From assembly GCA_963777955.1 (NCBI GenBank), contig CAVZSQ010000017.1, positions 231,737-295,736 on the forward strand: a DNA stretch of 64,000 bases, given 5' to 3'. How positions within the stretch are numbered: the stretch's first letter is position 1; the number at the start of each line of letters is the position of its first letter. The translations under genes were made by a program, and so were the position numbers. This DNA comes from Calditrichia bacterium. Lineage in GTDB: Bacteria; Calditrichota; Calditrichia; JAJRVZ01. The notes beneath the pieces were generated by a model that saw only the letters and a program-made list of their open reading frames with translations, ran no database searches and was not told the origin of the DNA. Shown piece after piece: positions 3,289-56,353 of this stretch.

Positions 3289-3660
3289 ATGGCAAAATCC
3301 CAAAAGTATAACGCCCGGCCTGTTACTTCGCTATTGATCGTCGCCGGGGCGGTCCTGCTGGCTGTGATCATCGGACAGTTAACCCCCCTGCTTAATTTGG
3401 AATTGAACTTACTGGATTACCGCTTTAAGATCAGGGGCACGCAAAGTGTGGTCAAGTCACCAATAGTCATTCTGGCCATCGATGATCAATCGGATGAATC
3501 AACACCGGCCCGCTGGCCCTGGCCGCGCAGTTATTATGCCCACGTCATTGAGAATCTGAATGAAGCCGGCGTAAAAGCGATCGGCATCGACGTCATATTC
3601 GATCAGGCCGATCAGAATGGTGCGCAGTCGGATAGCCTGCTGGTCGAGGCTCTCAGATAA
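3289..3660 (+). CDS. CHASE2 sensor domain, N-terminal fragment of a CHASE2-adenylate/guanylate cyclase (frameshift ~3655)
   Basis: TM helix followed by CHASE2-like sequence (ILAIDDQSDE...WPWPRSYYAHVIENL). The reading frame breaks at 'agaTaaatat'; removing one T restores ...EALRKYKNVVLAG. Confidence 0.6.
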   Translation: MAKSQKYNARPVTSLLIVAGAVLLAVIIGQLTPLLNLELNLLDYRFKIRGTQSVVKSPIVILAIDDQSDESTPARWPWPRSYYAHVIENLNEAGVKAIGIDVIFDQADQNGAQSDSLLVEALR

Positions 3661-5452
3661 ATATAAAAACGTGGTGCTGGCCGGGAAAATCGATATTCCG
3701 GCCGGTGGCCGCACCGATATGGCCACACTGGTTCCTCCCTATGAAATTTTTCGTCGGAGCGGAGTACAGTGGGGCCTGGTCTCCTTCGACCTGGATCAGG
3801 ATGGATTTTACCGCCGTTATCTGGTTGGACAAAATTATAATGACAGCCTATATTCTTCTTTTGCCACACAATTACTCAGAATATATAAAGGTATTCCTGC
3901 GCAGGTCACCCTGGCCGACAGCGGAAGTTTTTTTCAGTTAGACACTTTTAAGATTCCCAAAATAAACAGTTATTCGACATTGATTAATTATGCCGGACCG
4001 GCCGGCACTTTCCGGCAATATTCTTTTGATGCCGTGCTCGATGATGAAGATTTCGATCTGATCGAAGAATATGATCTGGATGCTTTCAGCGATATCGGTG
4101 ATATTGCCAGTGGTATTCCGCCGGGTCTGTGCTGCTCCGGGGATTTAAAGGATAAAATCGTCCTGATCGGTTCCACCATGAAGGAATTGCACGACGATTT
4201 CCCCACCCCTTTTCTGGAAGTGCGGGATGCCCAGGGTCGATCCAGTAAAGTGCTGACCAACGGAGTGGAGATCCATGCCAATACCCTGAATATGATTCTA
4301 AATCAGCAATATCTCCGGCAGATTTCTTTCTGGTGGCAGATAGCCATTCTGGTTTTACTGGCCATTGCTGTTTATTTCCTGACCCGGTTTTTACCCACTT
4401 TCTGGGGGATGTTGATAACTATAATTATTGCCCTGGCTTATTTTGGGCTGGCTTTTGTTTCCTTTTCATTCTGGAGTACAATTATTGAGCTCAGTACGCC
4501 GATACTGGCCATAGCTTTTGCTTACCTGGGCCAGACGGTTTATCAGTACATCCTGTCGCAGAAAGAAAAGAGATGGATCCAGGATGCCTTCAGCCATTAT
4601 GTTCCGGCCAAAGTGGTTAAGGAAATCGTCAAGGATCCGGACAAGTTAAAACTGGGCGGCGAGGAACAGGTGGTTACGGTGCTATTTTCCGACATCGCCG
4701 GGTTTACACCCCTCTCCGAAAAAATGAGTCCGGCTGAGCTGGTCCGTCTGCTGAATGAATATCTGACCGAGATGACCGATATCATCCTGGCCAATGAGGG
4801 TATCATCGATAAATATGAAGGGGATGCCATCATGGCCGAGTTTGGCATTCCGGTCAATTATGCCAATCATCCATATATGGCCTGTAAAGCAGCACTGCTG
4901 ATGCAGCAGCGCCTGAAATTTTTACGGCAAAAATGGCAGGATGCCGGTAAACCGGTAATCAAGGCCAGGGTGGGCATCAATACCGGCAATGTCATTGTCG
5001 GCAACATGGGCTCGCGCGATGTGCTGGATTATACGGTGATGGGTGATAATGTAAACCTGGGCGCCAGGCTGGAAAGCGCCAATAAATTTTATGGTACCAG
5101 TATCATGATCAGTGATTTTACTTATGAATACGTCAAAAATGATTTCTACACACGCGAACTGGATTCAATCCGCGTGGTTGGTAAAGCAAAACCGGTGAAA
5201 GTTCATGAATTAATCGCTTTTAAAGATGAAAAATTAAGCGATAATTTTATGCAGTTATTGGAAAAATACCAGGAAGGTCTGCAATTCTATAAAACCCAGA
5301 AGTGGGATAAAGCCATCACGACATTTGAAGCCTGCCTGCAGTTAGTACCGGACGACACCCCTTCGGCCGAATACCGTACCCGCTGTATCGAGTATAAATT
5401 CAACAGTCCGGGACCGGATTGGGATGGTGTTACGGATCTGAAGGGCAAATAG
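3617..5452 (+). CDS. CHASE2-linked class III nucleotidyl (adenylate/guanylate) cyclase, main part
   Basis: CHASE2 continuation, two TM helices, then a cyclase catalytic domain (VTVLFSDIAGFTPLSE...EGDAIMAEFG...GINTGNVIVGNMGS) and a C-terminal TPR-like tail. Confidence 0.7.
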   Translation: MVRSRIACWSRLSDKYKNVVLAGKIDIPAGGRTDMATLVPPYEIFRRSGVQWGLVSFDLDQDGFYRRYLVGQNYNDSLYSSFATQLLRIYKGIPAQVTLADSGSFFQLDTFKIPKINSYSTLINYAGPAGTFRQYSFDAVLDDEDFDLIEEYDLDAFSDIGDIASGIPPGLCCSGDLKDKIVLIGSTMKELHDDFPTPFLEVRDAQGRSSKVLTNGVEIHANTLNMILNQQYLRQISFWWQIAILVLLAIAVYFLTRFLPTFWGMLITIIIALAYFGLAFVSFSFWSTIIELSTPILAIAFAYLGQTVYQYILSQKEKRWIQDAFSHYVPAKVVKEIVKDPDKLKLGGEEQVVTVLFSDIAGFTPLSEKMSPAELVRLLNEYLTEMTDIILANEGIIDKYEGDAIMAEFGIPVNYANHPYMACKAALLMQQRLKFLRQKWQDAGKPVIKARVGINTGNVIVGNMGSRDVLDYTVMGDNVNLGARLESANKFYGTSIMISDFTYEYVKNDFYTRELDSIRVVGKAKPVKVHELIAFKDEKLSDNFMQLLEKYQEGLQFYKTQKWDKAITTFEACLQLVPDDTPSAEYRTRCIEYKFNSPGPDWDGVTDLKGK

Positions 5453-24839: not shown

Positions 24840-24990
24840 ATTTTTCTACAACTGTATGTTTAATCTTACAATTTATAATTTGTAATTGGTAACTGGTAAT
24901 TGTTAATCACGCTGTCCGGCGGATCTGACCACTGGCTCATTGGAATTTGGTATTTGGAATTTGGTCATTACACATACCGGGTCTATTCAC

Positions 24991-27048: not shown

Positions 27049-27186
27049 GAGTTCCTTAGTTCCTTAGTCCAGTTCCTGACCCTCCCCTCTGTCCCCTCCC
27101 TTTCAGTCCGGCGGCTGCCGGACTGAAAGGGAGGGGATGAAAGGGGTGGGTTACTCAGGAACTCAGGTACTCAGGAACTCAGGTAC
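27049..27186. repeat. Large imperfect palindromic REP/MITE-like element (arms ~65 bp) ending in ACTCAGGW octamer tandem repeats
   Basis: Left arm gagttccttagttccttagtccagttcctgaccctcccctctgtcccctccctttcagtccgg. Its reverse complement is recapitulated on the right after the centre cggctg. The core ccctccctttcagtcc...ggactgaaagggagg is repeated at 36862. Confidence 0.7.
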
Positions 27187-27231
27187 TATATTATTTTAAC
27201 ATTGAAAAGGGATTGAATAAATTGTTAGATT

Positions 27232-31365: not shown

Positions 31366-31480
31366 AAAAGGGACAAAAGGGACAAAGGGACAAAGTCGGA
31401 GGTCATCGCGAACAGATACCGCTGATTATAGTACAGGCGGAATGTACTCAGGTACTCAGGTACTCAGGAACTCAGGTCCT
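31366..31480. repeat. Mosaic intergenic repeat: (aagggacaa)x3 + aaagtcggaggtc + acaggcggaat + (actcaggt)x4
   Basis: Shares the 13-mer aaagtcggaggtc with 56100, and ggacaaagg / tacaggcgg(g)aat with 60523 and 60612. Octamer tandem as at 27155. Confidence 0.6.
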
Positions 31481-31767
31481 CAGAAACTAGAAGACTGATC
31501 GATCGATTTGGCCAGCTGGAAATCACGGTGGGTGAGGCCTTTGGCCGAGTGGGTACTTAAACGCAATTGCACCCGGTTGTAACTATTAAGAATATCCGGG
31601 TGATGATCCTGTTGTCCGGCAAGTTGGGCCACCACATTGACGAAAGCTATGGCGCTGTCGAAATCCTTGAATACCCATTCTTTCTGAATGGCATTGTCGA
31701 CATAATTCCAATCCGGCAATTCCTGAAGTTGCGCTGCGATTTCCTCGGTCGAAAGTTTTTTGGACAT
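31480..31767 (-). CDS. Pterin-4-alpha-carbinolamine dehydratase
   Basis: PCD/DCoH motif (EDHHPD variant QDHHPDILNSYNRVQLRLSTH). Confidence 0.85.
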   Translation of the reverse strand: MSKKLSTEEIAAQLQELPDWNYVDNAIQKEWVFKDFDSAIAFVNVVAQLAGQQDHHPDILNSYNRVQLRLSTHSAKGLTHRDFQLAKSIDQSSSF

Positions 31768-31869: not shown

Positions 31870-32623
31870 TCAAACCGGGTTTGGTATATCAATAAATTTG
31901 ACCTGCAGCGGGAATTTACGGGAGAGATGATCGCTCAAAGCCATGATGCCGAATTTTTCGGTAGCATAATGACCGGCAGCGACAAAATGAATTTTTTCTT
32001 CTTTGGCATAATGCATGATATGCTCACTGGCTTCACCGGTGATGAATATATCCAGGCCTTCGGCCACAGCCCGGGTTATATCTTTTTGGGCAGCGCCGCT
32101 GATGATGCCGGCTTTGGATATATAATCCGGCCCGTAAGGAAAAACCAGAATCGGGCGGTTGATCAGGGCTTCAATCTTGACAAAAAAGACTGTCTTTGGG
32201 AACAGCTTCGGCGGTACCGCGGATGCCGATATAGTCACCATGCCGGCCGGCAAAGGGTTGCAGGTTTTTGAGATTCAGCGCCTGGCCCAGTTGGGCGTTA
32301 TTGCCAATTTCCGGGTGCGCGTCCAGCGGCAGATGGTAAGCCAGCAGATTAATATTTTCGGTTAACAGCAAGCGGATCCGCTCACGGTAGCTGCCCCGGT
32401 ACAAGGGGCGCTCAAAATCCCAGATCAGGCCATGGTGGACAATCACGGCCTCGGCTCGTTCGTGAACTGCCCGTTCGAACAGTTCCAGCGAAGCGCTGAC
32501 CGCCGTGATCACCCTGGAAATTTCCTCGCGGCCCTCGACCTGCAATCCATTGGGACAGGTATCCTTAAACTCACTGATATTTAAAAGCGTATTAAGATAT
32601 TCTACTAAATCTTGTCGCTTCAT
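31870..32623 (-). CDS. Nif3-family dinuclear metal-centre protein (YqfO/YbgI-like). Frameshift ~32200
   Basis: N-terminal part in ORF 32171..32623 (MKRQDLVEYLN...AYHLPLDAH) and C-terminal part in ORF 31870..32253 (...FITGEASEH...AAGHYATE), overlapping in different frames. Confidence 0.7.
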
Positions 32624-32629
32624 AATCTA

Positions 32630-33182
32630 TTAAGGATTCAAACCAAGTTCAGCGGCAACGGGCACGAGTGCCGTGATCACAAACTGGATATGCTGATCAA
32701 GTTCAACCCCCAGTTCTGCTGCGCCCTTAATGATCTCTTCCCGGTTTACCTTGGCAGCGAAGCGCTTGTCCTTCATTTTTTTCAGCACGGACGATACTTG
32801 TGACTTCGCTCAGTGACCGGGTAGGCCGCACCAGGGTTACTGCGATAATAAATCCGCACAATTCATCAACGGCATATAATACCCGCGCTGCCAGGGTATC
32901 GCGCGGAACTCCGCTGAAATCGGCATGTCCGAGAATGATCCTGCGGATATCTTCAGGCATACCCTTTTCGGTCAGGATCTCACTCCCCTTCCCGGGGTGT
33001 TGATCCGGATACATTTCATAATCAAAGTCATGGATCAGACCGATGGCACCCCACAGTTCCTCGTTCTCCCCGTATTTTTTGGCATAAGCCCGCATGGCAG
33101 CCTCGACTGAATAGGCATGCTTGCGCAGGGGATCGGTCCTGGTGTATTCATATAGAATCTGTAGGGCTTGTTCGCGATTCAT
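32630..33182 (-). CDS. HD-domain metal-dependent phosphohydrolase (HDIG-like). Frameshift ~32770
   Basis: HD motif region (HAYSVEAAMRAYA...GLIHDFDYEMY). The C-terminal 45 aa (MKDKRFAAKVNREEIIKGAAELGVELDQHIQFVI...GLNP) is encoded in another frame at 32630..32764. Confidence 0.7.
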
Positions 33183-34805: not shown

Positions 34806-36860
34806 ATGGGGATGAAGAAAATACTGACTTTAATACTGGGTCTGGTTATACTCGGATCTGTTTATGCTGACGGACCGGCAGTCAGCGGAGCGGTAATTAC
34901 CGATTCGCCAATTGATTTTTCTACCTTTTTTGCGGTCAACCGGTTGGGACCGCCGCAGGTTTCCGCATCCGGCAAGTTTATGGTGTTCACCGTTAAAAAA
35001 GCATTGCTGGCGGAAAATAAATACGAAACACAAATCTGGCGGATTGATGCGGATGGAAGTAATTTACGCCAATTGACCGGCGGTATTGCTGCCAGCACCG
35101 ATCCGCAGATCGGACTGGATGATGTATATTTGTATTTTCTGGCCAAACGGGGTACCACCAGCCAGGTGTGGAGATTACCGTTAAACGGCGGAGAGGCTAG
35201 GGCGGTTACCGATTTATACGGAGACATTTCCGGTTTCACACTATCGGCGGATAATAAAAACCTGTTGCTGCAGCGAATGGTCGATCCGGCCTGTAGCGGT
35301 GAAGAGAGCATTCAGCAGAGCAGTGAACAAAAGAAGAAAAGTAAATCCAAAGCCAGGGTTATTGACCATTTACTGTACCGGCACTGGAACGAGTGGCTGG
35401 AAGGGGAATTCGGACATCTTTTTTTATACAACCGGGAGAAAGCACAGGCTGAAGATATCACTCCCGGTGCCTATCACACTCCGCCGATCGCCCTGGGCAG
35501 CAGTCATGATTATTGTTTTTCGGCGGATGGCCGGGAGATATGTTTTGTCTCCAATCATGATCCCGAACCTGCCACCAGTACTAATAATGATGTCTTTCTT
35601 TATAATCTGCCGGAAAATAAGTTGACCAAAATAAGTATTAGTCCGGGTAATGATTGTAATCCGCATTACTCGCCTGACGGAGTTTATATCGCTTATACTT
35701 CCATGGAACGCGCCGGTTTTGAAGCTGACCGGCAGCGACTGATGTTGTATAAACGTAAGACAGGAGAAACTGCAGAACTGACGGTCGGTTTCACTCTTTC
35801 GGTTGACGAAATTATCTGGTCTGCGGACGGCCGCGATATATATTTCACAACTGAAGAAGCAGAGAACGTTTCAATTTATAAAGTGAATTTGAAAACGAAG
35901 AAAATTGAGGCGGTATTAAAGGGTCATTATGTCAGCGGGGTGAAGTTTTTAAATAAAGATGAACTGGTCTTCGCCGGGCAAAGCACCCGCTATCCGGCGG
36001 AAATATTCAGATATAATCTGCGGAACAGGAAACTTACCCAGTTGACTCATTTTAATACAGAAAACCTGGGCAGGTTTGAGTTGCCCGGGTATGAAGAATT
36101 CTGGTTCAAGGGTGCGCTGGGGGACAGCGTGCAGGGATTTATTATGAAACCGCCGGGTTTTGTTCAGGGGCAAAAATACCCGGCTGTGCATCTGATTCAC
36201 GGCGGACCGCAGGGGGCCTGGAACAACAACTTTCATTTCCGCTGGAATTACCAGATGTTTGCTGCGCCGGGGTACGTGGTGTACTGGATCAATTTTCATG
36301 GCAGCAGGGGGTACGGACAGAAGTTTACCGATATCATTTCCGGGCACTGGGGCGACTATCCTTACCAGGACCTGGTCAAGGGTACTGAATACGTGCTCAG
36401 TCATTACGACTATGTTGACGGCGGGCGCCTGGCAGCCGCCGGCGCTTCGTACGGCGGATTCATGGTCAACTGGATTGCCGGGCATGAGAATCCCTATAAA
36501 TGCCTGATTTCCCATGACGGCATTTATGAGCAGATCAGCATGTACGGAGCCACCGAAGAATTATGGTTCCCGGAGTGGGAATTCGGCGGATTGCCCTGGC
36601 AGGAAAATACAACCTATCAGCAGTGGTCGCCCGGACGGCTGGCCGGCAATTTCAAAACGCCGATGCTGATCGTGCATGGGGAAAATGATTACCGGGTGCC
36701 TTACACGCAGGGATTGCAGATGTTCACCGCCCTGCAGCGGCAGGGGGTACCCTCGCGGCTGTTGTATTTTCCCGACGAAGATCATTTTGTGCAGAAACCG
36801 CAGAATGCAAAGGTATGGTGGGATACGGTGTATGAGTGGTTGGGCAGGTATTTAAAATAA
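34806..36860 (+). CDS. S9 family serine peptidase (prolyl oligopeptidase/acylaminoacyl-peptidase type) with N-terminal beta-propeller
   Basis: Signal peptide. TolB-like propeller repeats. Catalytic GASYGGFM (GxSxGG), Asp (HGENDYRVP) and His (DEDHF). 684 aa intact. Confidence 0.85.
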   Translation: MGMKKILTLILGLVILGSVYADGPAVSGAVITDSPIDFSTFFAVNRLGPPQVSASGKFMVFTVKKALLAENKYETQIWRIDADGSNLRQLTGGIAASTDPQIGLDDVYLYFLAKRGTTSQVWRLPLNGGEARAVTDLYGDISGFTLSADNKNLLLQRMVDPACSGEESIQQSSEQKKKSKSKARVIDHLLYRHWNEWLEGEFGHLFLYNREKAQAEDITPGAYHTPPIALGSSHDYCFSADGREICFVSNHDPEPATSTNNDVFLYNLPENKLTKISISPGNDCNPHYSPDGVYIAYTSMERAGFEADRQRLMLYKRKTGETAELTVGFTLSVDEIIWSADGRDIYFTTEEAENVSIYKVNLKTKKIEAVLKGHYVSGVKFLNKDELVFAGQSTRYPAEIFRYNLRNRKLTQLTHFNTENLGRFELPGYEEFWFKGALGDSVQGFIMKPPGFVQGQKYPAVHLIHGGPQGAWNNNFHFRWNYQMFAAPGYVVYWINFHGSRGYGQKFTDIISGHWGDYPYQDLVKGTEYVLSHYDYVDGGRLAAAGASYGGFMVNWIAGHENPYKCLISHDGIYEQISMYGATEELWFPEWEFGGLPWQENTTYQQWSPGRLAGNFKTPMLIVHGENDYRVPYTQGLQMFTALQRQGVPSRLLYFPDEDHFVQKPQNAKVWWDTVYEWLGRYLK

Positions 36861-36974
36861 CCCTCCCCTCTGTCCCCTCCCTTTCAGTCCAAGGACTGAA
36901 AGGGAGGGGATAAAGGGGTGGGTCTTTATGGGCGCATTTTATGTGCGCCCATGCCGGGCAGATATTTAAAATAA
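36843..36974. repeat. Second copy of the palindromic element (36862..36955) flanked by 19 bp direct repeats gggcagRtatttaaaataa (36843-36861, 36956-36974)
   Basis: ccctcccctctgtcccctccctttcagtcc-aagg-actgaaagggaggggataaaggggtgggtc plus a second hairpin gggcgcattttatgtgcgccc. The flanking direct repeat duplicates the last codons and stop of the S9 peptidase gene. Confidence 0.65.
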
Positions 36975-36990
36975 TACGGATGGAGGATCC

Positions 36991-38231
36991 GATGAAATTA
37001 GGGAAAATGATCTTTGGTATTTTATTATTTACGATTTGTTACATTACTTTAACTGCGCAAGCAGCGGAAGACACCTGGCGGGCCTGTTGCACTTAAAAGT
37101 CAGATCACCCACGTCCAGCCAATGACCGGTATTGTGATGTGGGAAGATTCGAAAAACAGTTTTAGTACTGCCATCCAGCTGGAATATTCCTACATGCGCT
37201 ACTGCGATGTGGTCAGCGAAAAGGGGGTCTACGATTGGAATGCGGTCGAACGCAAACTGAATTCCACGGCCAGCCGCGGGCATCAGGCCGTACTGCGATT
37301 CTGGGATACTTATCCCGGCCGTGAGACCAGTGTTCCGGACTATATCAAGGCATTACCGGATTATAAGGAAACCATGGCTAAAAGTGAGGGTAGAGATACT
37401 GGTTTTCCGGACTGGTCCCATCCGGAATACCAGCGCTTCTTCCTGGAGTTTTACGAAAAATTTGCTGAGCAGTACGATCAGGACCCGCGCCTCGCATTTC
37501 TGGAAACCGGTTTTGGTCTGTGGGCTGAGTATCACATTTATTCAGGACCGGAAGAACCAGGAAAAACTTTTCCAAGTAAGGAGTTTCAAGCCCGCTTCTT
37601 CCAACACCTTAGTAGTGTACTTAAAAATACACCATGGATGATTTCAAAGGATGCCCACGACGGGAAACGCACCCCCTTTGTGCTGCAGCCCGAATTGCTC
37701 AAACTGAAGTTCGGTATTTTTGATGATTCTTTCCACCTGGCCTGGAAGCCGGGGTATAATCTGGAAGGCTGGACTTTTTTTGGTCGCGAGCGCTATAAAG
37801 AATCCCCTATGGGCGGAGAAATCCTGTTCCCTGACAAAGAACGTGAAGAACTGGTGTCAAAAAACTGGGCTGAACAGGCACGTAATTTCGGTATCACTTT
37901 TATGATTTGCGAACAATGGCCGCGTATGACAACAATGGAACGGATAGCTGAACATGGCCTGGCTTGTGGCTACAAGTTCAAGATTACCGGTTTTGAAACC
38001 AGTGCGACCGAGTCACGGGTGACAGTACTAAATACCGGTGTCGCACCAATTTACTACGATGCTTTTGTGAGCATTAATGGTGTCCGTGCTGTTGAATCGT
38101 TGAAATATTTACAATCTGGCTCAGCCAGACAATTCGTGGTTAAGGCAGGGGGTACCAATCCGAAACTGACCATTGCAGGCGACCGGCTGGTACCAGGACA
38201 ACAGATTGAATTTGCAGCGGATTTACAATAA
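36991..38231 (+). CDS. Secreted DUF4832/GH-like putative glycoside hydrolase. Frameshift ~37075 between signal peptide and body
   Basis: Signal peptide MKLGKMIFGILLFTICYITLTAQA from ATG 36991 in a different frame from ORF 37122..38231. Shares the GFGLWAEYH / GFWGEGH motif with the next gene. Confidence 0.55.
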
Positions 38232-39891: not shown

Positions 39892-39964
39892 GTTAAGAAT
39901 TTGAAACAACGGACCGGCCGGATTGTTATCTGCATATTCAGTATCATTAATGGAGGATAGCGAA

Positions 39965-40718
39965 ATGGTTAAAAGGATTATATTCATGACTATGCTGATT
40001 TATTTTTTAACCGGCTGGTCATATAAATCTTTATCCCCTGTTAATATAGTTTATGCGGAGGAAAGAAATAAGATGGTGCTCAAAGTCAAAAAGACAAAAG
40101 ATTTTCAGGTCTCGGGAGATGGTAAATTTCTTGTCTGGGATTCCACTGAATGGCTGTCCCTGCCGCAGCGAAGAGGAAAAGATACGGGTTACCAGACCGC
40201 TATCAAGGTTCTCTATTCGGACAGCGGAATATATTTCCTCTTCCGCTGCAGCGACGGAATATTAAAAGCTTCTTTACAGGAAGATTTTATGGACTTGTGG
40301 AAAGAGGATGTAGTGGAAGTTTTTATCTGGCCGGATGAAAAGTATCCTGTTTATCTTGAATATGAATTATCTCCACTGAATCATGAGCTGAGTTTTGTTA
40401 GTCCCCAACTTTGAAGGAAGTTTGTGGGGGTGGCGTCCCTGGCATTACGAAGGAGACCGCCTGGTTCGCCATGCCACAGCGGTTCAGGGCGGAAACAAAG
40501 AAAGTGGTTCGAAAATCAGCGAGTGGACCGCCGAATTTTTTATTCCGTATGGGTTGCTCAAGCCGTTGCAAAACGTACCACCGCGGCCGGGAACGGAATG
40601 GCGGGCCAATTTTTATCGTTGTGATTATGATACGGGAGAGAGTGCTTACTGGTCGTGGCAGCCGGTGGATAAGCGTTTTCACGAATACAAGAAATTCGGG
40701 ACCCTGGTCTTCGAATAG
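39965..40718 (+). CDS. Carbohydrate-binding family 9 (CBM9)-like secreted protein. Frameshift ~40400
   Basis: N-terminal signal/TM MVKRIIFMTMLIYFLTG. CBM9-like segments in ORFs 39923..40414 and 40395..40718 in different frames. Confidence 0.5.
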
Positions 40719-40750: not shown

Positions 40751-41933
40751 ATGCGAAGATTTCAAAATTGGGTAAGTATTCTGGTAATCCTGATGCTGGC
40801 GGGTCAGGTGCTGGGTCAAAAAAAAGCAGTGATCGGATATTATCAATCCTGGCAATGGCACAAGTCCCCGGAACTGCTTAGTCCGGGTAATATCCCTTAT
40901 AATAAATTAACGGTGATTAATTATTCATTTTTTTATCCGCTGGAAAGCGGTGAAATTGTCGGCATGGATCCGATTGCTGATCGCTTTCTGCTGCTAGGGG
41001 AATCGAATTCATTATCTGCACGCCGCGATCCGGGTGGGTCGATAATCGAATTGGCCAGACATCATGGCAGCAAAGTAGTGTTGTCCATCGGCGGGTGGGA
41101 AAATTCCAGTCATTTTCCGCAAATTGCAGCCGATCCCCAAAAGCGCGCAAACTTCGCACATTGGTGTGTCAGGCACATCCGGCAATATGGATTTGATGGG
41201 ATCGATGTGGACTGGGAATTCCCGGGTTATGTACGGCATAACGGTACACCACAGGATCGCCAGAATTTCACCTTGTTACTCCAAACCGTGCGCGACAGCC
41301 TGCAAACACTCGGCAAGACATCTGGTAAAAGTTATCTTTTATCTGCCTCCTTACCTGCTGCTGCCGGTCACCTGCCGGATATAGAAGTACAGAAAATTTC
41401 CACGATTTTGGACTATCTGAATATTATGACCTGGGATTTATTCGGCCCGTGGGGTAAGATCAGTAACCATAATTCTGCATTATACGGCCCGGGACAGGGG
41501 GACTCAACCCGCTGCCTGGATGGCGCATTTAAACTTTATCATCAACTACACCATGTTCCCGCGGAAAAAATAAATCTGGGTGTTGCCTGTTTCGGCCATT
41601 CGTATACACACTGCAACGAAATCTATGGCGAACATCAGGGGCCCGATACCAGTCTTTTTATGGAAGAAGATGGTATCCGCTATGCACAAATTGTGGAAAA
41701 GATGACATCTGTTCGAAAGGTTATGGGATCCAAAAGCACAGGCACCGTATCTGGTCAGCAATTCACTGAATATGCTCATTTCGTTTGATGATGAAGAATC
41801 CGTTGCCCGTAAAGCAGACTATGTCATCCAAAACAATGCCGGCGGACTGATTATTTGGCCGCTGCTGGGAGATTATCTAAAAGATAATAAGACACCACTG
41901 CTCGATGTGATCAATCAAAAGTTTTCAAGGTAA
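40751..41933 (+). CDS. GH18 family chitinase-like glycoside hydrolase. Frameshift ~41770
   Basis: Signal peptide. GH18 catalytic motif FDGIDVDWEFPG. C-terminal segment (...ISFDDEESVARKADYVIQNNAGGLIIWPLLGDY) is in another frame at 41760..41933. Confidence 0.75.
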
Positions 41934-42052
41934 ATTGACAAGCTGGAACAGAAAGAGTTGAAAGATGATTTTAAATAAAACGTTATGAATTATAGTGTAA
42001 TTGTTATATAGTTGTAATTAGTAATTAGTAATTATTTACAGGAGGAATTCTT

Positions 42053-43190: not shown

Positions 43191-43313
43191 AAGTACCTTA
43201 GTACCTTAGTACTGATGGGATTGTTTTACATCGTCATCCCGGGCATGTCGGAGACCTGGCGGTAGACAGGACCCGGGATCTATCATACTCAAATGAATCA
43301 AAATCTGTAAATT
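43191..43313. repeat. Partial copy of the dispersed repeat family (ccttagt tandem + ggcggtag...gggatctatcat...aaatgaatca module)
   Basis: aagtaccttagtaccttagtact echoes 27051. ggtagacaggacccgggatctatcatactcaaatgaatca parallels ggtagtaatacaggcgggaatctatctgttgtaatgaatgatta at 56210 and 60605. Confidence 0.5.
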
Positions 43314-46246: not shown

Positions 46247-47663
46247 ATGAGAGTGAAAACAACACAAGGGCATGAGCTAGATCTGAAGCAGGACATCTTC
46301 GATGGTCTGAAAATGCGTTTACGGGGGCCGCTGTTCCTGCCCGGTGATGCCGGCTACGAGGAATCCCGGACCGTCTGGAATGCCATGATCGACCGTCGTC
46401 CTGCGGCTGTTGTGCGCTGCCTCGGGAAAGCCGATGTGATAGCCTGCGTACAGTTCGCGCGCGAAAATGATATCCTGCTCTGCATCAAAGGGGGAGGACA
46501 CAACATCGCGGGCCTGGCCACGGCCGACGGCGCACTTATGCTCGATATGTCGCTTATGCGTGGTGTATGGGTGGATCCACAGAGAAAAATCGCCCACGCT
46601 CAGGCGGGTTGTCTGCTTGGTGACGTGGATCGTGAAACGCAGCTGCATGGGCTCGCTGCCGTACTTGGTTTCGTGTCGCTCACGGGCGTTGCGGGACTTA
46701 CTCTCGGCGGCGGATTCGGTTATCTGACCAGGCGCTGGGGTTGGACGACGGACAATGTGGCCGGAATGGAAGTAGTGACTGCCAACGCGCAACTGGTACG
46801 GGCCAGCCATGATGAGAATGCCGATCTATTCTGGGGGCTGCGGGGTGGCGGCGGGAACTTCGGCGTGGTGACCGGTATCGATTATGTGCTCCATCCAGTC
46901 GGTCCTGAGGTTGTTGGCGGCGTTGTAGCCTGGCCGGCCAGCGAAGCGCCAAAGGTGTTGGAGTTGTACCGTACACTTACTGAGAAGTCCCCGCTTGAAC
47001 TTACACTTGCCCTGCTGATGCGCCCTGCGCCTCCGGCGCCATGGCTGCCCAAGGAGATGCATGGCAAGCCGATTGTAGCATTACTGGCTTGTTACAGCGG
47101 AAAACCCGCAGAAGGCGAGAAGATCGTTGCCCCCATCAAGTCGTTTGGACACCCTGTTGGCGACATGCTGGTACGCACGGCCATATACGCAGTTGCAGTC
47201 TTTGCTGGATGCCACGCAGCCAAAAGGCCGGCGTTATTACTGGAAGAGCGAGTACCTGTCAAGCGTAGAACCGGCCCTGTGCGGTAAAATCATCGAACAT
47301 GCGGAAAAAATCAGATCGCCGCACTCGGCGGTGATCCTGTTCCAGATCGGAGGTGCTCTGAATCGGCTTGAAAATGAGCATTCTCCTGTCGGCAATCGCA
47401 ATGCGCGTTATGTACTCAACATTCCGGGCTCATGGGAACAGGCCAGTGAAGACCTGGCACACGTCGAATGGGCCCGGGCAGCCTGGAACGACATGAAATC
47501 GTTTTCCACCGGAGGTACGTACATCAACTTCCTGACCGAGGAAGAAGGTTCCGAGCGGACCGCGGCAGCGCTGGGCACGGGACTGCAGCGGTTAGCCGAG
47601 ATCAAAGCGCAATGGGATCCGCAGAATTTGTTCCGCACCAACCGCAACATCAAACCGGCCTGA
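46247..47663 (+). CDS. FAD-linked oxidase (FAD_binding_4 + BBE-like C-terminal domain). Frameshift ~47190. GC-rich block
   Basis: FAD-binding PCMH motifs (CIKGGGHN, GGGFGYLTRRWG, LRGGGGNFGVVT). C-terminal part (...YYWKSEYL...NIKPA) is in ORF 47127..47663. Roughly 58% GC, against ~45% in neighbouring genes. Confidence 0.7.
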
Positions 47664-52057: not shown

Positions 52058-52600
52058 TTAAATGAGGAACTTTAACTTTTTCTTTTTTCTGACACTTATT
52101 GTCACGGGTATAATTGGTTGTAAGGGCACGGGCAATTCTCCATTGGTATCGATCCCCGCAGTTTGGCCAGTCCAAAATCGGTAAGTTCTGATTTTCCCTT
52201 CCTCAGTCAGCAGGATATTGTCGGTCTTCACATCCCGGTGAATAATCTGGTGACAGTGGGCGTGTCCCAATCCTTCGGCCAGTTGCAGGCTGTAATCAAG
52301 AATTTCGGTTATGGAAAATGCTTTATCTTCTGATTTTAATTGTTTGAGTTTGGATTTCAGAGTACCACCAGAAATATATTCCAGTACCAGGTATTTCTGT
52401 CCATTAACCTCGTCCACATCGTAGATAGTTTCAATATTGGGATGATTGAGGGCTGAAATCGTTTTGGCTTCCTGCTCAAAACGGGTGACGTCTTCGGTCG
52501 AAACGTTGAGATGGAGAGGCAAGAACTTCAAGGCAACATCCCGGTCGAGTTTGGTGTCGTGGGCTTTGTAGACTGATATTAATCCGAAATAAAGAATAGA
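52058..52600 (-). pseudogene. Serine/threonine protein kinase remnant (subdomains I-VIb only)
   Basis: ...VYKAHDTKLDRDVALKFLP...HRDVKTDNILLTEEG... The catalytic loop is present, but the reading frame breaks before DFG, and the N-terminus starts inside the glycine loop next to AT-rich non-coding DNA. Confidence 0.55.
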
Positions 52601-53204: not shown

Positions 53205-54072
53205 ATGGCGTATTGGCTGACGGGTTCGATTGGTCTGCTTTCAGACGCGCTGGAATCCTTCATCAACCTTGTCGGCGCTATAATGGCGTTGGCGATGTTG
53301 ACCATAGCAGTTCGCCCGGCGGATGAGGACCATGCCTACGGCCATAGTAAGGCAGAATATTTTTCAAGCGGCGTTGAAGGGACATTAATTCTGATTGCCG
53401 CCGTAAGTATCGGCGTTGCGGCTATTCAACGGTTTATTACTCCAAAGCCACTTGAGCAGATTGGACTCGGATTGGGGATTTCAATTGTGGCCTCACTCAT
53501 TAACCTGTGTGTCGCGCTGGTCTTACTGCGAGCCGGTAAGCGCCACCGTTCCGTTACGCTGGAAGCCAATGCACAGCACTTGCTGACGGATGTGTGGACA
53601 TCGGCGGGTGTGCTGGTTGGGGTAGGTGCGGTAGCACTCACCGACTGGGATAGACTAGACCCGATTGTTGCCTTCCTGGTCGCTGGTAACATCATCTGGT
53701 CGGGAGTGCGCATTGTGCGCATGTCCGTATCCGGGCTGATGATACGGCTTCTTACCGGTTGAGGATCAAAACACGATACGAAAAGTGTTAGAACCGTATA
53801 TTAAAAACGGAGTACAATGTCACGCGCTTCTTACTCGTCAATCAGGTACCAGACGGTTTGTGTCATTTCATGTATTAGTTCCTGGTACATGGACCTGGGA
53901 ACGTGGTCATCGGTTAGTGGAAAATATAGAAGCTGACATTCGCCAGGCCTTACCGAGTGTTACAGTGCTTACTCACTTAGAATCGTTAAATGACCCTGCT
54001 TCATGGGAGGATACGAGTTTAGACCGCACAAAAATCCAACCGGATGATTCTCCGGCAACGCATAACAATTGA
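53205..54072 (+). CDS. Cation diffusion facilitator (CDF) family transporter. Frameshift ~53760. GC-rich
   Basis: TM region with ...[10 protein letters not shown]... (CDF signature) in ORF 53205..53762. C-terminal cytoplasmic domain in ORF 53785..54072. The ORF is open from 53130, so the N-terminus may be slightly truncated. Confidence 0.65.
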
Positions 54073-54181: not shown

Positions 54182-56087
54182 ATGGATGATTTGATGAAGC
54201 GGATTCGATGGATCTGGATTCTCCTGGCTTTATATGGATTGCCGCTGGAATCCGGGAATTACCCAGAAACTCTTAATTCTCAGTGCTGACGGCTGCCGTC
54301 CGGACGCCCTGTTGAAAGCCGATGCCGCGAACCTTCGCGCTCTGGCTGACAGCGGCTTGTATACCTGGTGGGCTTTGAGCCGTCCGCCCACCAAAAGCGG
54401 ACCGTGCTGGTCGTCGATCTTCACCGGCGTTTGGAACGACAAGCACGGTGTCACGGACAACACCTTTGCCAACTCCAGGTTCGACCAATACCCCATGCTT
54501 ATTCAAGCGGTTGAAGAACGCTGATCCTTCTTTTTATTCCGGATGGTTTGTTTATTGGCCCAATCTCGGAACTGACATGCCCCACGGCGCGGATGTGGCT
54601 GCCGGAGACTGGTCCGACGCCAACACCCTGGAACGAGCCATCAACTTCTTGAGTGACGAACAAACGGACGCGCTGTTTGTTCATTTCGGCGCCGTTGACG
54701 CTGCAGGGCATGCATCGGGCTTCGATCCGGAAAGTCCCGAATACATCAACGCCATCCATGTCGTGGACGGCCAGGTTGGCCAGGTGATCTCCGCCATGAA
54801 GTCGCGTCCAAATTTTTCAAACGAACATTGGATGGTGATTGCCCTGACCGATCATGGAGGATACACAACCCACCATGGCGGCACGATGATCGAGGAAATG
54901 CGCACGTTTTTCATCATATCCGGGGATGACGTGCCACGCGGAGAGATTCCGCACGATTGGATAAATAAGTCATTTCGAGTTCCGCCCTACGGTTTGCGAT
55001 TGAATGGAGCCGGAGATCATGTCGCGATCCCGGATCGTGCGGATTACCATTTCGGTTCCGGTCAGGACTTCACCGTTGAATTGTGCATCCGAACGGCCGG
55101 CTGGTCCGGTACCCCGGTTTTGTTCGCCAATAAGGACATGCGGAACAAAAAGAATCCCGGATTTGCGTTTGTATTGATTGACGAGGGCAAATGGCAGGTC
55201 AACGTAGCGGATGGAACTCACGAAAAAAACATTTCAGGGCCCATCATCGCGGACGACCACTGGCATCACCTCACCGCCGTGTTCCGGCGCGGGGGCACGC
55301 TCACGCTGTTTCAGGACGGAATCAAGACCGGGGCCGTGGACATATCAGGGATCGGGAGTGTGGACACACCGTACGGATTCGTCCTCGGCCAGGACGGGAC
55401 GGAGCAGCCGAACCACGTTTGTCCCGGGCAGTATTAACGAAGTCCGCGTCTGGAAAACGGCACTTCCGGACACCCAGGTTCAAAGATGGATATTCACCCC
55501 GGTCACGCCGGAACATCCCGATTATTCCGACCTGCTCGGCTATTGGAAAATGGACGACGGGCAGGGAACATTGATCAAAGATTCGAGTCAGCCCGCAAAC
55601 GACGGGGCATTCACGGGAACTAATCCTGAGTGGATCTTTCCGGATGCAACCGTCGAAACACTGGCTTTCGATTCCTGCCAAACCGCCAAGACCGTTGACC
55701 TGACTGTCACCGCCCTCGCCCATTTCGGCATCGAAATCGAACCGGAATGGAATCTGGATGGAAGAAACCTTGTCCCGGCAAAATCGCCGGACGCGGTCCG
55801 GGAATTATTGGTTCTTCCGGTCTTCCCCACGATTCTGGAGAATTATCCCAATCCGTTTAATTCAAGCACCAAGATCAAATTCCAAATTCCAAATTCCAAT
55901 TTTGTAACTTTGGAAATTTATAACCTGCTTGGCCAGAAAGTAGTGACCTTAATGAAAGAAAATCTTAGGGTTGGTGAACGCATACGGTCAGAATGGAACG
56001 CCAGCAGGCTTTGCCAGTGGGATTTATTTGTATCGGCTGCAGGCAGGTGAGTATGAGCAGGTTAGGAAGATGATTTTACTCAGGTGA
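54182..56087 (+). pseudogene. T9SS cargo protein: alkaline-phosphatase-superfamily (NPP/phosphodiesterase-like) domain + LamG/concanavalin-like domain + Por_Secre_tail CTD. At least 4 frameshifts. GC-rich
   Basis: Signal MDDLMKRIRWIWILLALYG. LLILSADGCRPD...DHGG metal-site motifs. LamG (DFTVELCIRTAGWSG...DDHWHHLTAVF). CTD ILENYPNPFNSSTKIKFQIP...EIYNLLGQKVVTL... then a final shifted ...YRLQAGEYEQVRKMILLR. Pieces lie in ORFs 54234..54524, 54448..55437 and 55211..56050. Confidence 0.6.
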
Positions 56088-56090
56088 TTG

Positions 56091-56353
56091 AAGGGTAAAG
56101 TCGGAGGTCTGGCACTAGGCAGACTGAAGATCTACCGCCTGCCTGATATCAGGCAGGCGGTAGAGGTAATGGATAATGAAAAGAGTCATTCCGGCCAAAG
56201 GTGAATTGGCTGGTAGTAATACAGGCGGGAATCTATCTGTTGTAATGAATGATTACTAATTTACTACGTTGTTCACCTGTCTATATCTGATACAAACCCA
56301 AACTTCCAGGCGCTCCCAAGGGGGCGCTGAAATCTATCATTGTAAATGGTAAC
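56091..56353 (+). repeat. Full-length (~260 bp) member of the repeat family, copy D, containing a perfect 14 bp-stem hairpin (56130-56161) and the 3' module
   Basis: Aligns along most of its length with 60515..60752. Ends ...ccaggcgctcccaagggggcgctgaaatctatcattgtaaatggtaac. Internal palindrome ctaccgcctgcctga-tat-caggcaggcggtag. Confidence 0.7.

Follow-up and report, generated by a model that had tools for sequence, protein, structure and literature searches.

A palindromic intergenic repeat with flanking direct repeats at a gene junction in a Calditrichia bacterium

The junction behind the S9 peptidase gene

The window analyzed here is a stretch of 64,000 nucleotides (nt) of contig CAVZSQ010000017.1 (positions 231,737 to 295,736) from a Calditrichia bacterium, in which a short palindromic element lies immediately behind an S9 family peptidase gene and is enclosed by two copies of a direct repeat. 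The peptidase gene (34806–36860, + strand) encodes a prolyl oligopeptidase/dipeptidyl aminopeptidase-like protein, with a Pfam Peptidase_S9 match at E = 8.6e-62, and its last codons and TAA stop make up the upstream copy of the repeat (DR1, GGGCAGGTATTTAAAATAA, 36842–36860, + strand), which encodes G-R-Y-L-K-stop. The downstream copy (DR2, GGGCAGATATTTAAAATAA, 36956–36974, + strand) is non-coding and differs from DR1 at one of the 19 nt. At up to three mismatches, DR1 and DR2 are the only matches to the 19-mer in the 64-kb window, where 0.11 are expected by chance, and two matches were obtained in 0 of 100 shuffles of the window. On the far side of DR2 follows a gene for a secreted protein of unknown family (36982–38231, + strand), with a ribosome-binding site (RBS) GGAGGA at 36982–36987 and its ATG at 36992. 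The initial annotation had placed a direct repeat around a palindromic element after the peptidase stop, with the last codons and stop codon in the first flank; both statements hold, the flank being part of the open reading frame (ORF) 34806–36860, and only its figures needed correction, as the repeat begins at 36842 and not one base later at 36843, and the insert measures 95 and not 94 bp.

The insert between DR1 and DR2 (36861–36955) is made up of a 64-nt C-rich/G-rich palindrome and, after it, a 32-nt tail that includes a small hairpin. The core palindrome (36860–36923, + strand) is of the long form by the family alignments described below and scores 85.8 bits with covariance model R1. Its two arms (36860–36890 and 36893–36923) are 31 nt each, 90% complementary and 2 nt apart, and comprise an outer stem (ACCCTCCCC/GGGGTGGGT) with a T.T mismatch, an internal loop of TCTGT and ATAAA, and a 17-bp inner stem (CCCCTCCCTTTCAGTCC/GGACTGAAAGGGAGGGG) closed by a 2-nt center. 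The tail (36924–36955, + strand) occurs once in the window, as does its small hairpin GGGCGCATTTTATGTGCGCCC (36930–36950). RNA folding of the complete region from DR1 to DR2 (36842–36974) gives -78 kcal/mol with z = -9.3, and no ORF of at least 40 amino acids is found within the insert in the ORF list.

The C terminus of the peptidase, ...EWLGRYLK, is kept in homologs with the pattern ...W-L-G/E-R/K-Y-L-K, which makes DR1 native coding sequence and DR2 its derivative. DR1 includes a perfect 11-bp AT dyad (TATTTAAAATA). The right end of the duplication is the final base of the stop codon, and the insertion lies in a gene junction of 12–18 nt. A duplication reaching further upstream, of which the tail would be a decayed gene end, was considered and rejected, since the similarity of the tail to the end of the peptidase gene is not significant (53/500 and 203/500 shuffles were as good).

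Empty and filled orthologous sites

The initial annotation had proposed a search of related genomes for an empty site with a single copy of the 19-mer, and three orthologous loci (L070, L077, and L078; 72–73% protein identity) show exactly this arrangement. They are syntenic with the window, the orthologous loci having PilZ, SDR, HD, and NIF3 genes upstream and genes for the 412–418-amino acid secreted protein, a 526-amino acid protein, CBM9, and GH18 downstream. In all three the single 19-mer is followed directly by A(C/T)GGAG...ATGAAA, a ACGGAGGA-like RBS and ATG, and this RBS and start are those found after DR2 in the window. Moreover, the sequence 3' of DR2 is homologous to the sequence 3' of the stop codon in the empty-site orthologs.

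The 87% relative (L065) has a filled site, in which palindrome and duplication are as in the window and the tail is shorter. This site was seen in five independent metagenome contigs, and the insert is consequently neither an assembly artefact nor recent. Window positions 36839–36860 (GTTGGGCAGGTATTTAAAATAA, 22 nt) are identical to the downstream copy in the relative (L065 8120–8141), so that the ancestral duplication most likely measured 21–22 bp and probably began at 36839. The tail of the relative is an 18-nt version (L065 8105–8121, compared with window 36924–36955) in which 13 nt (GGGCGCATTTTAT) are absent between two TTTAT repeats, either through a slippage deletion in the relative or because a template switch created the hairpin in the lineage of the window. 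Judged by the empty and filled sites together, the 95-bp stretch is an insertion with a target duplication of 19–22 bp.

The opposite position would be that nothing was inserted: a hairpin native to the site, as a terminator or a regulatory structure, would have evolved there beside a slippage repeat, or the structure arose in assembly. The many apparent frameshifts in the window do cast doubt on its base-level quality. However, the same structure stands in the five independent assemblies of the relative, the palindrome is repeated elsewhere, and the outgroups have three empty sites; the relative assemblies and the empty sites refute this explanation, to which practically no likelihood is left. 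Replication slippage, which the initial annotation had offered as a source of the duplication, is no help here, as it cannot create 95 bp that belong to a dispersed repeat family.

The precise position of the repeat bears on a further explanation. Integrase-borne elements typically enter the 3' ends of genes with direct repeats of 15–60 bp that restore the gene, and a repeat that ends exactly at a stop codon could be read as attL and attR of a larger site-specifically integrated element whose interior has been lost. The DNA between the repeats, however, is a dispersed palindrome family and not a pair of unique element ends, no integrase lies nearby, the 19-mer occurs nowhere else in the window and beside no other copy of the palindrome, and both filled lineages show the same 95-bp state with no larger intermediate. 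A remnant of this kind is thus very improbable.

The two filled sites also differ in how their parts have diverged. The peptidase genes of the window and of the 87% relative agree at 75% of third codon positions, whereas the palindrome stems show 0 substitutions in 58 positions, for which the chance at the third-position rate is about 0.75^58, or roughly 6e-8 by our own arithmetic. The differences within the palindrome are restricted to three of the four apical bases and one internal-loop base. As the stems remained unchanged while third positions diverged by 25%, they have been either selected or homogenized by conversion with other copies; beside the latter option it is noted that the arms of the second copy in the window (27079–27151) are identical to those of the peptidase copy. 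DR2 differs between the two lineages at 3/22 positions and the tail by the 13-nt indel, a divergence compatible with neutrality.

The palindrome family and its intergenic mosaic

Copies of the palindrome were sought with exact-pattern scans and with covariance model R1, which was built from the copies. The palindrome is present at ten loci, which include two orthologous pairs and hence represent eight independent copies. The second copy in the window (27079–27151, + strand, R1 score 73.6 bits) has the same orientation as the first and lies between divergent genes for a homoserine dehydrogenase and a Cpn10-like protein; its left arm is identical to that of the peptidase copy at 30/30 positions and its loop (GGCGGCTGCC) is longer. 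The other long forms are the ortholog of the 36860–36923 copy in the 87% relative, L060 5559–5626 with its ortholog L080 5381–5452, L072 452–511, and L074 792–850. In a short form, found at L075 7138–7192, L075 18499–18553, and L060 3216–3271, the apical TTCAGTC...GACTGAA is replaced by ATRYAT, giving CCCCTCCCTT-ATRYAT-AAGGGAGGGG. The short form is invisible to the exact-pattern scans of the collections, and the family is therefore larger than these scans indicate.

The core measures 59–73 nt and has the end consensus TGACCC...GGGTYA. All copies agree in the inner stem (CCCCTCCCTT.../...AAGGGAGGGG), the internal loop varies from 2 to 5 nt and the apex is variable, and the right outer arm GGGGTGGGT is present in every copy opposite the left arm ACCCTCCCC or a variant of it, with a T.T mismatch in most. 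Separately, the G-rich arm as a whole, GGGAGGGG-N3-5-GGGGTGGGT (window 36897–36923), is invariant in 10/10 copies and the C-rich arm varies in three; the former is a canonical four-run G-quadruplex motif that includes a Shine-Dalgarno-like GGAGG, and the latter (CCCCUCCCUUUC) resembles the anti-Shine-Dalgarno tail of 16S rRNA. An alignment that mixed long and short forms was mis-registered, and the "compensatory" changes counted in it, being artefacts, were not used as covariation support.

The 64-kb window has two copies, 22 kb of the 87% relative have three, and 8 kb of L060 have two; copy number is apparently low, at about one per 10–30 kb of the sequence seen. A scan of the genome collection with the inner-stem pattern returned 64 matches, of which L060 alone was a relative and the other 63 are an unrelated haloarchaeal palindrome; a metagenome scan yielded four further contigs with the palindrome. 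There was no copy in about 41 kb of outgroup contigs from more distant relatives, and the collection scans gave no match in viral contigs, plasmids, or phages. The haloarchaeal palindrome (63 loci, L001–L064 minus L060) is about 50 nt long, with GCCCCTTTCAGTCCCGCCC and GGGCGGGACTGAAAGGGGC separated by about 14 nt, and is a multi-copy family in its own right in Halovenus, Haloarcula, and metagenome-assembled genomes of Halobacteriales. It has exactly a 12-nt stem (CCCTTTCAGTCC/GGACTGAAAGGG) in common with the element studied here, which may be a coincidence.

L060 is titled "uncultured Gammaproteobacteria bacterium" (CAWBMW010000026.1, 502 kb), and taken at face value would imply spread across phyla. 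This was rejected on the homologs of its UDP-glucose dehydrogenase, the best named ones being from Calditrichaceae, Calditrichaeota, and KSB1, and a 94% relative of the enzyme coming from the same sample as the 87% relative of the window. On these homologs the gammaproteobacterial label looks wrong. L060 further has a NusG-like gene beside a polysaccharide locus, and octamer arrays and both forms of the palindrome as in the lineage of the window. As far as the data reach, the family is treated as specific to one Calditrichota-like lineage. It seems to be undescribed; for Caldithrix abyssi, the only palindrome given in the genome paper is one of 18 nt that is unrelated to it (PMC5317091), and the window has no match in Rfam 15 at gathering thresholds. 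At E values up to 1, Rfam returned only generic matches at no more than half the gathering score, nearly all of them microRNA-precursor hairpins.

The second copy in the window is embedded in other repeats. The initial annotation had described it as a larger copy at 27049..27186, of which the core palindrome is real but the whole is a composite: the outer hairpin (27050–27187, + strand, 138 nt) folds at -97.5 kcal/mol, and its arms are octamer tandem repeats (AGTTCCTT x2.4 and ACTCAGGA x4.4) unrelated to the palindrome. Such 7–8-nt tandem arrays (AGTTCCTT, ACTCAGGA, AAAGGGAC, GTACTCAG, AGTACCTT, TAATTGG...) occur in many intergenic regions of the window, of its relatives, and of L060, together with small G+C-rich hairpins and palindromes. 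In the window these arrays lie at 27050–27068, 27152–27187, 31366–31395, 31444–31488, 43192–43212, 24876–24964, 693–730, 42014–42034, and 55876–55899, and some of the tandem arrays form the arms of large hairpins.

Comparison of orthologous sites suggests how this mosaic changes. At the site of the 27079–27151 copy, the 87% relative has kept the outer arms and has an unrelated 74-nt AAAGGGAC-type module at the center. Where the relative has its two short-form copies, the window shows octamer arrays or unrelated sequence, and the 85–88% relatives have other modules in place of the L060/L080 copy. Clean insertion boundaries were found neither at the 27079–27151 copy nor at the two short forms of the relative or the L060 copy, all of which are module replacements. 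The duplication is confined to the peptidase copy. The initial annotation had suggested that every copy be examined for flanking duplications, and outside the peptidase locus there were none, neither above chance at the four other independent long-form copies nor, by eye, at the three short-form copies. The 32-nt tail accompanies no palindrome copy except that behind the peptidase.

Heterocystous cyanobacteria reportedly have short tandemly repeated heptamers and also small dispersed repeats, elements of 21–27 nt (Mazel 1990; Elhai 2008); the 7–8-nt intergenic arrays are said to form the arms of large hairpins there, with palindromic units nested centrally and gained or lost between close relatives. 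The octamer arrays of the window recall these cyanobacterial repeats, a likeness that serves as a lead, with phylum and sequences both different.

Mode of insertion, known elements, and effect on the host genes

The 95 bp are probably an old insertion of a fragment of the mosaic intergenic repeats, composed of one palindrome unit and the small adjacent hairpin. [quoted passage not shown] It landed between the peptidase stop codon and the RBS of the next gene, where the spacer is very short. A nicking nuclease or a transposase acting in trans would have made nicks ~20 bp apart, staggered around the AT-rich target dyad TATTTAAAATA, and subsequent fill-in would have produced the duplication. The length of the duplication probably allowed the copy to survive, as it would have preserved the peptidase C terminus together with the original 5' flank of the downstream gene. 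In a junction almost without spacer, only an event that regenerates the C terminus and stop together with the native RBS context spares both genes, and selection thus probably explains both the position of the insert and the long duplication.

Several observations weigh against this reading. A duplication at the peptidase copy alone, with nothing comparable around the four other long forms, does not indicate a transposase with a fixed stagger, and the module replacements at the other polymorphic sites fit recombination or copy-choice as well as they fit transposition. Neither a transposase nor an integrase nor a RAYT/Y1 transposase was found among the about 55 ORFs of the window that were scanned, so the cognate enzyme for which the initial annotation had recommended a search did not come to light. 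Furthermore, the right end of the insert is formed by the tail, which has no match to the left end, and there is no terminal inverted repeat on that side.

Part of this evidence would be accommodated by templated copy-choice during replication or repair, that is, by transposase-free template switching mediated by microhomology. A nascent strand that had passed the end of the peptidase gene would have switched to the repeat mosaic, copied about 95 nt and returned ~20 nt behind its point of departure. The insert does resemble an arbitrary slice of two mosaic modules, with its unique tail and without an inverted repeat at the right end; the other polymorphisms of the family replace module for module at the same place; no other copy has the duplication; the window has no transposase; and the hairpins and short tandem repeats abundant there are fork-stalling. 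Set against this, no donor locus with palindrome and tail (CTTTATGGGCGCATTTTATGTGCGCCCATGCC) was found in the searched collections, which do not include the source genome, microhomology at the junction is at most 1 nt (the A of TAA/ACCC), and the end consensus TGACCC...GGGTYA across the copies suggests a defined unit. Copy-choice is the main rival reading, although a less likely one.

A structure-directed mechanism, of a kind not described so far, is a still more tentative reading. Here an enzyme, or a replication or repair route, would recognize hairpin or cruciform targets and insert hairpin modules, and the duplication, from 0 up to about 22 bp, would depend in length on the dyad of the target instead of on a transposase with a fixed stagger. 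The invariant G-rich arm GGGAGGGG-N3-5-GGGGTGGGT could then be a recognition or functional element. This reading is regarded as unlikely.

YPAL offers the closest behavioral parallel. In the portion of PMC2229807 that covers these elements, YPAL and RU-2 (after De Gregorio et al. 2006) have internal inverted repeats, are not AT-rich and lack TA ends, and YPAL, of 168 bp, is given duplications of 3–26 bp at targets spanning or adjoining dyad symmetry. Measured against that account, the present element is similarly a small, non-coding, G+C-rich palindromic intergenic repeat without TA ends, and has empty and filled orthologous sites, with a duplication of 19–22 bp at the peptidase copy and none detectable at the others. 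Its targets are likewise dyads, here TATTTAAAATA and the center of the large hairpin around 27079–27151, and it stands behind genes with which it is probably co-transcribed. The likeness to YPAL, as portrayed there, is one of behavior only. Homology of sequence to the 168-bp consensus is not expected from length, composition, and phylum. The core is 59–73 nt and not 168 bp, the host is Calditrichota-like and not a member of Enterobacterales, the inserted unit has an additional, unique 32-nt tail, and copy number is apparently low. To our knowledge, no mobilizing enzyme is known for palindromic elements with long or variable duplications of the YPAL class.

Comparison with REP sequences gives a more divided picture. 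REPs are 20–40 bp long, have an unpaired GTAG/CGTC tag, are present in hundreds of copies, are linked to RAYT, and produce no target duplication (PMC3733652). As in REP, BIME, and REPIN elements, the copies are imperfect G+C-rich palindromes that lie mostly just past stop codons, some abutting them (PMC3733652), and are found within repeat mosaics and nested in other palindromes, with stems kept and loops variable; the RNA roles to be expected, 3'-end protection and attenuation, are also the same. In contrast to REPs, the element has neither their size nor the tag, its copy number is apparently low, no RAYT gene was found in the window, and it does have a target duplication. Its ends are (T)GACCC and GGGTYA in 10/10 copies, with no GTAG or CGTC. 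The features shared with MITEs (Correia/NEMIS, ERIC, RUP, and SPRITE; PMC2229807, PMC10969869) are a length below 500 bp, the lack of coding capacity, multiple copies, a stable predicted fold of the transcript, and an adjoining AT-rich target. The core ends form an inverted repeat and the dated insertion is flanked by a direct repeat, as in MITEs, but the unit inserted here ends in the tail, which is unlike its left end, and the other copies show no duplication. MITEs, however, are as a rule AT-rich, make short duplications (TA or others), and have ends that match an insertion sequence (IS). This element is G+C-rich, no parent IS is known for it, and its 19–22-bp duplication is limited to a single copy.

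A small, palindromic, multi-copy intergenic element with a flanking direct repeat would also fit a canonical MITE from a conventional IS family, or a RAYT-mobilized REP/REPIN, with the 19-bp repeat as its standard duplication. That repeat, at 19–22 bp, is well beyond the 2–14 bp usual for IS families and is missing at the other copies, RAYT transposition leaves no duplication, the 20–40-bp size and GTAG/CGTC tag of REPs (PMC3733652) are unlike what is found here, and the window is without a transposase; such an origin is accordingly doubtful. The reading in the initial annotation is therefore retained in part. A mobile palindromic element with a target duplication is upheld at this locus, although the duplication it had treated as a hallmark of mobility is not a property of the family, the other copies being without flanking repeats. 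Its link to REPs and the IS200/IS605 group is not supported, given the missing GTAG/CGTC tag, the length of 59–73 instead of 20–40 nt, and the lack of a Y1 transposase in the window, and the "terminator-bearing" property is not supported either. No T-tract follows the stems on the + strand, where CTTTAT comes after the palindrome stem and ATGCC after the small hairpin, and the terminator scan called neither of the two, which also counts against a role of this kind for the RNA.

Position and fold nevertheless bear on what the hairpin may do in place. Six of the eight independent copies lie 0–37 nt after a stop codon. In the empty state the two genes at the peptidase junction are adjacent or overlapping, and in the filled state a stem-loop of -78 kcal/mol stands between them. 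By analogy with REP, ERIC, and Correia elements, the effect on the transcript should be 3'-end protection, attenuation, or uncoupling of translation; most likely, the hairpin behaves as REP and MITE hairpins do, protecting or attenuating the 3' end of the peptidase transcript and uncoupling the two genes.

The junction is a clean and dated case in which a small palindromic repeat came into a gap with hardly any spacer: the site is known both empty and, in two diverged lineages, filled, and its 22-bp duplication has been reconstructed. The repeat belongs to an apparently undescribed family and, with octamer arrays, small hairpins, and C/G-rich palindromes, to a mosaic intergenic system in an uncultured Calditrichota-like lineage. 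Beside YPAL, it is a second and unrelated case among the poorly understood palindromic elements whose target duplications are long or vary in length. In kind it joins a known class, that of small mobile repeats with a palindromic, intergenic character, and current views of bacterial mobile DNA are unchanged; of wider interest is how long or variable duplications come about at dyad targets.

Downstream of DR2, the secreted-protein gene is split in the window by one extra G (37080–37082) into 36992–37096 and 37122–38231, and is intact, at 412–418 amino acids, in the relatives. The extra G falls in a G-run and parts the signal peptide from the mature portion. Many further genes of the window look split or truncated in comparison with the orthologs of the relatives, including those for CHASE2, NIF3, HD, CBM9, GH18, FAD-binding oxidase, protein kinase, and cation-efflux proteins. 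Besides 36992–38231, the fragmented stretches are 3289–5452, 31870–32623, 32727–33182, 39923–40718, 40751–41788, 46247–47287, 52058–52531, and 53205–53762, and their number reflects either an indel-prone (long-read) assembly or the accumulation of pseudogenes in the lineage. Elsewhere in the window, a perfect 34-bp palindrome without spacer (TCTACCGCCTGCCTGAT/ATCAGGCAGGCGGTAGA) lies at 56131–56164, where G+C swings from about 36% to 54%.

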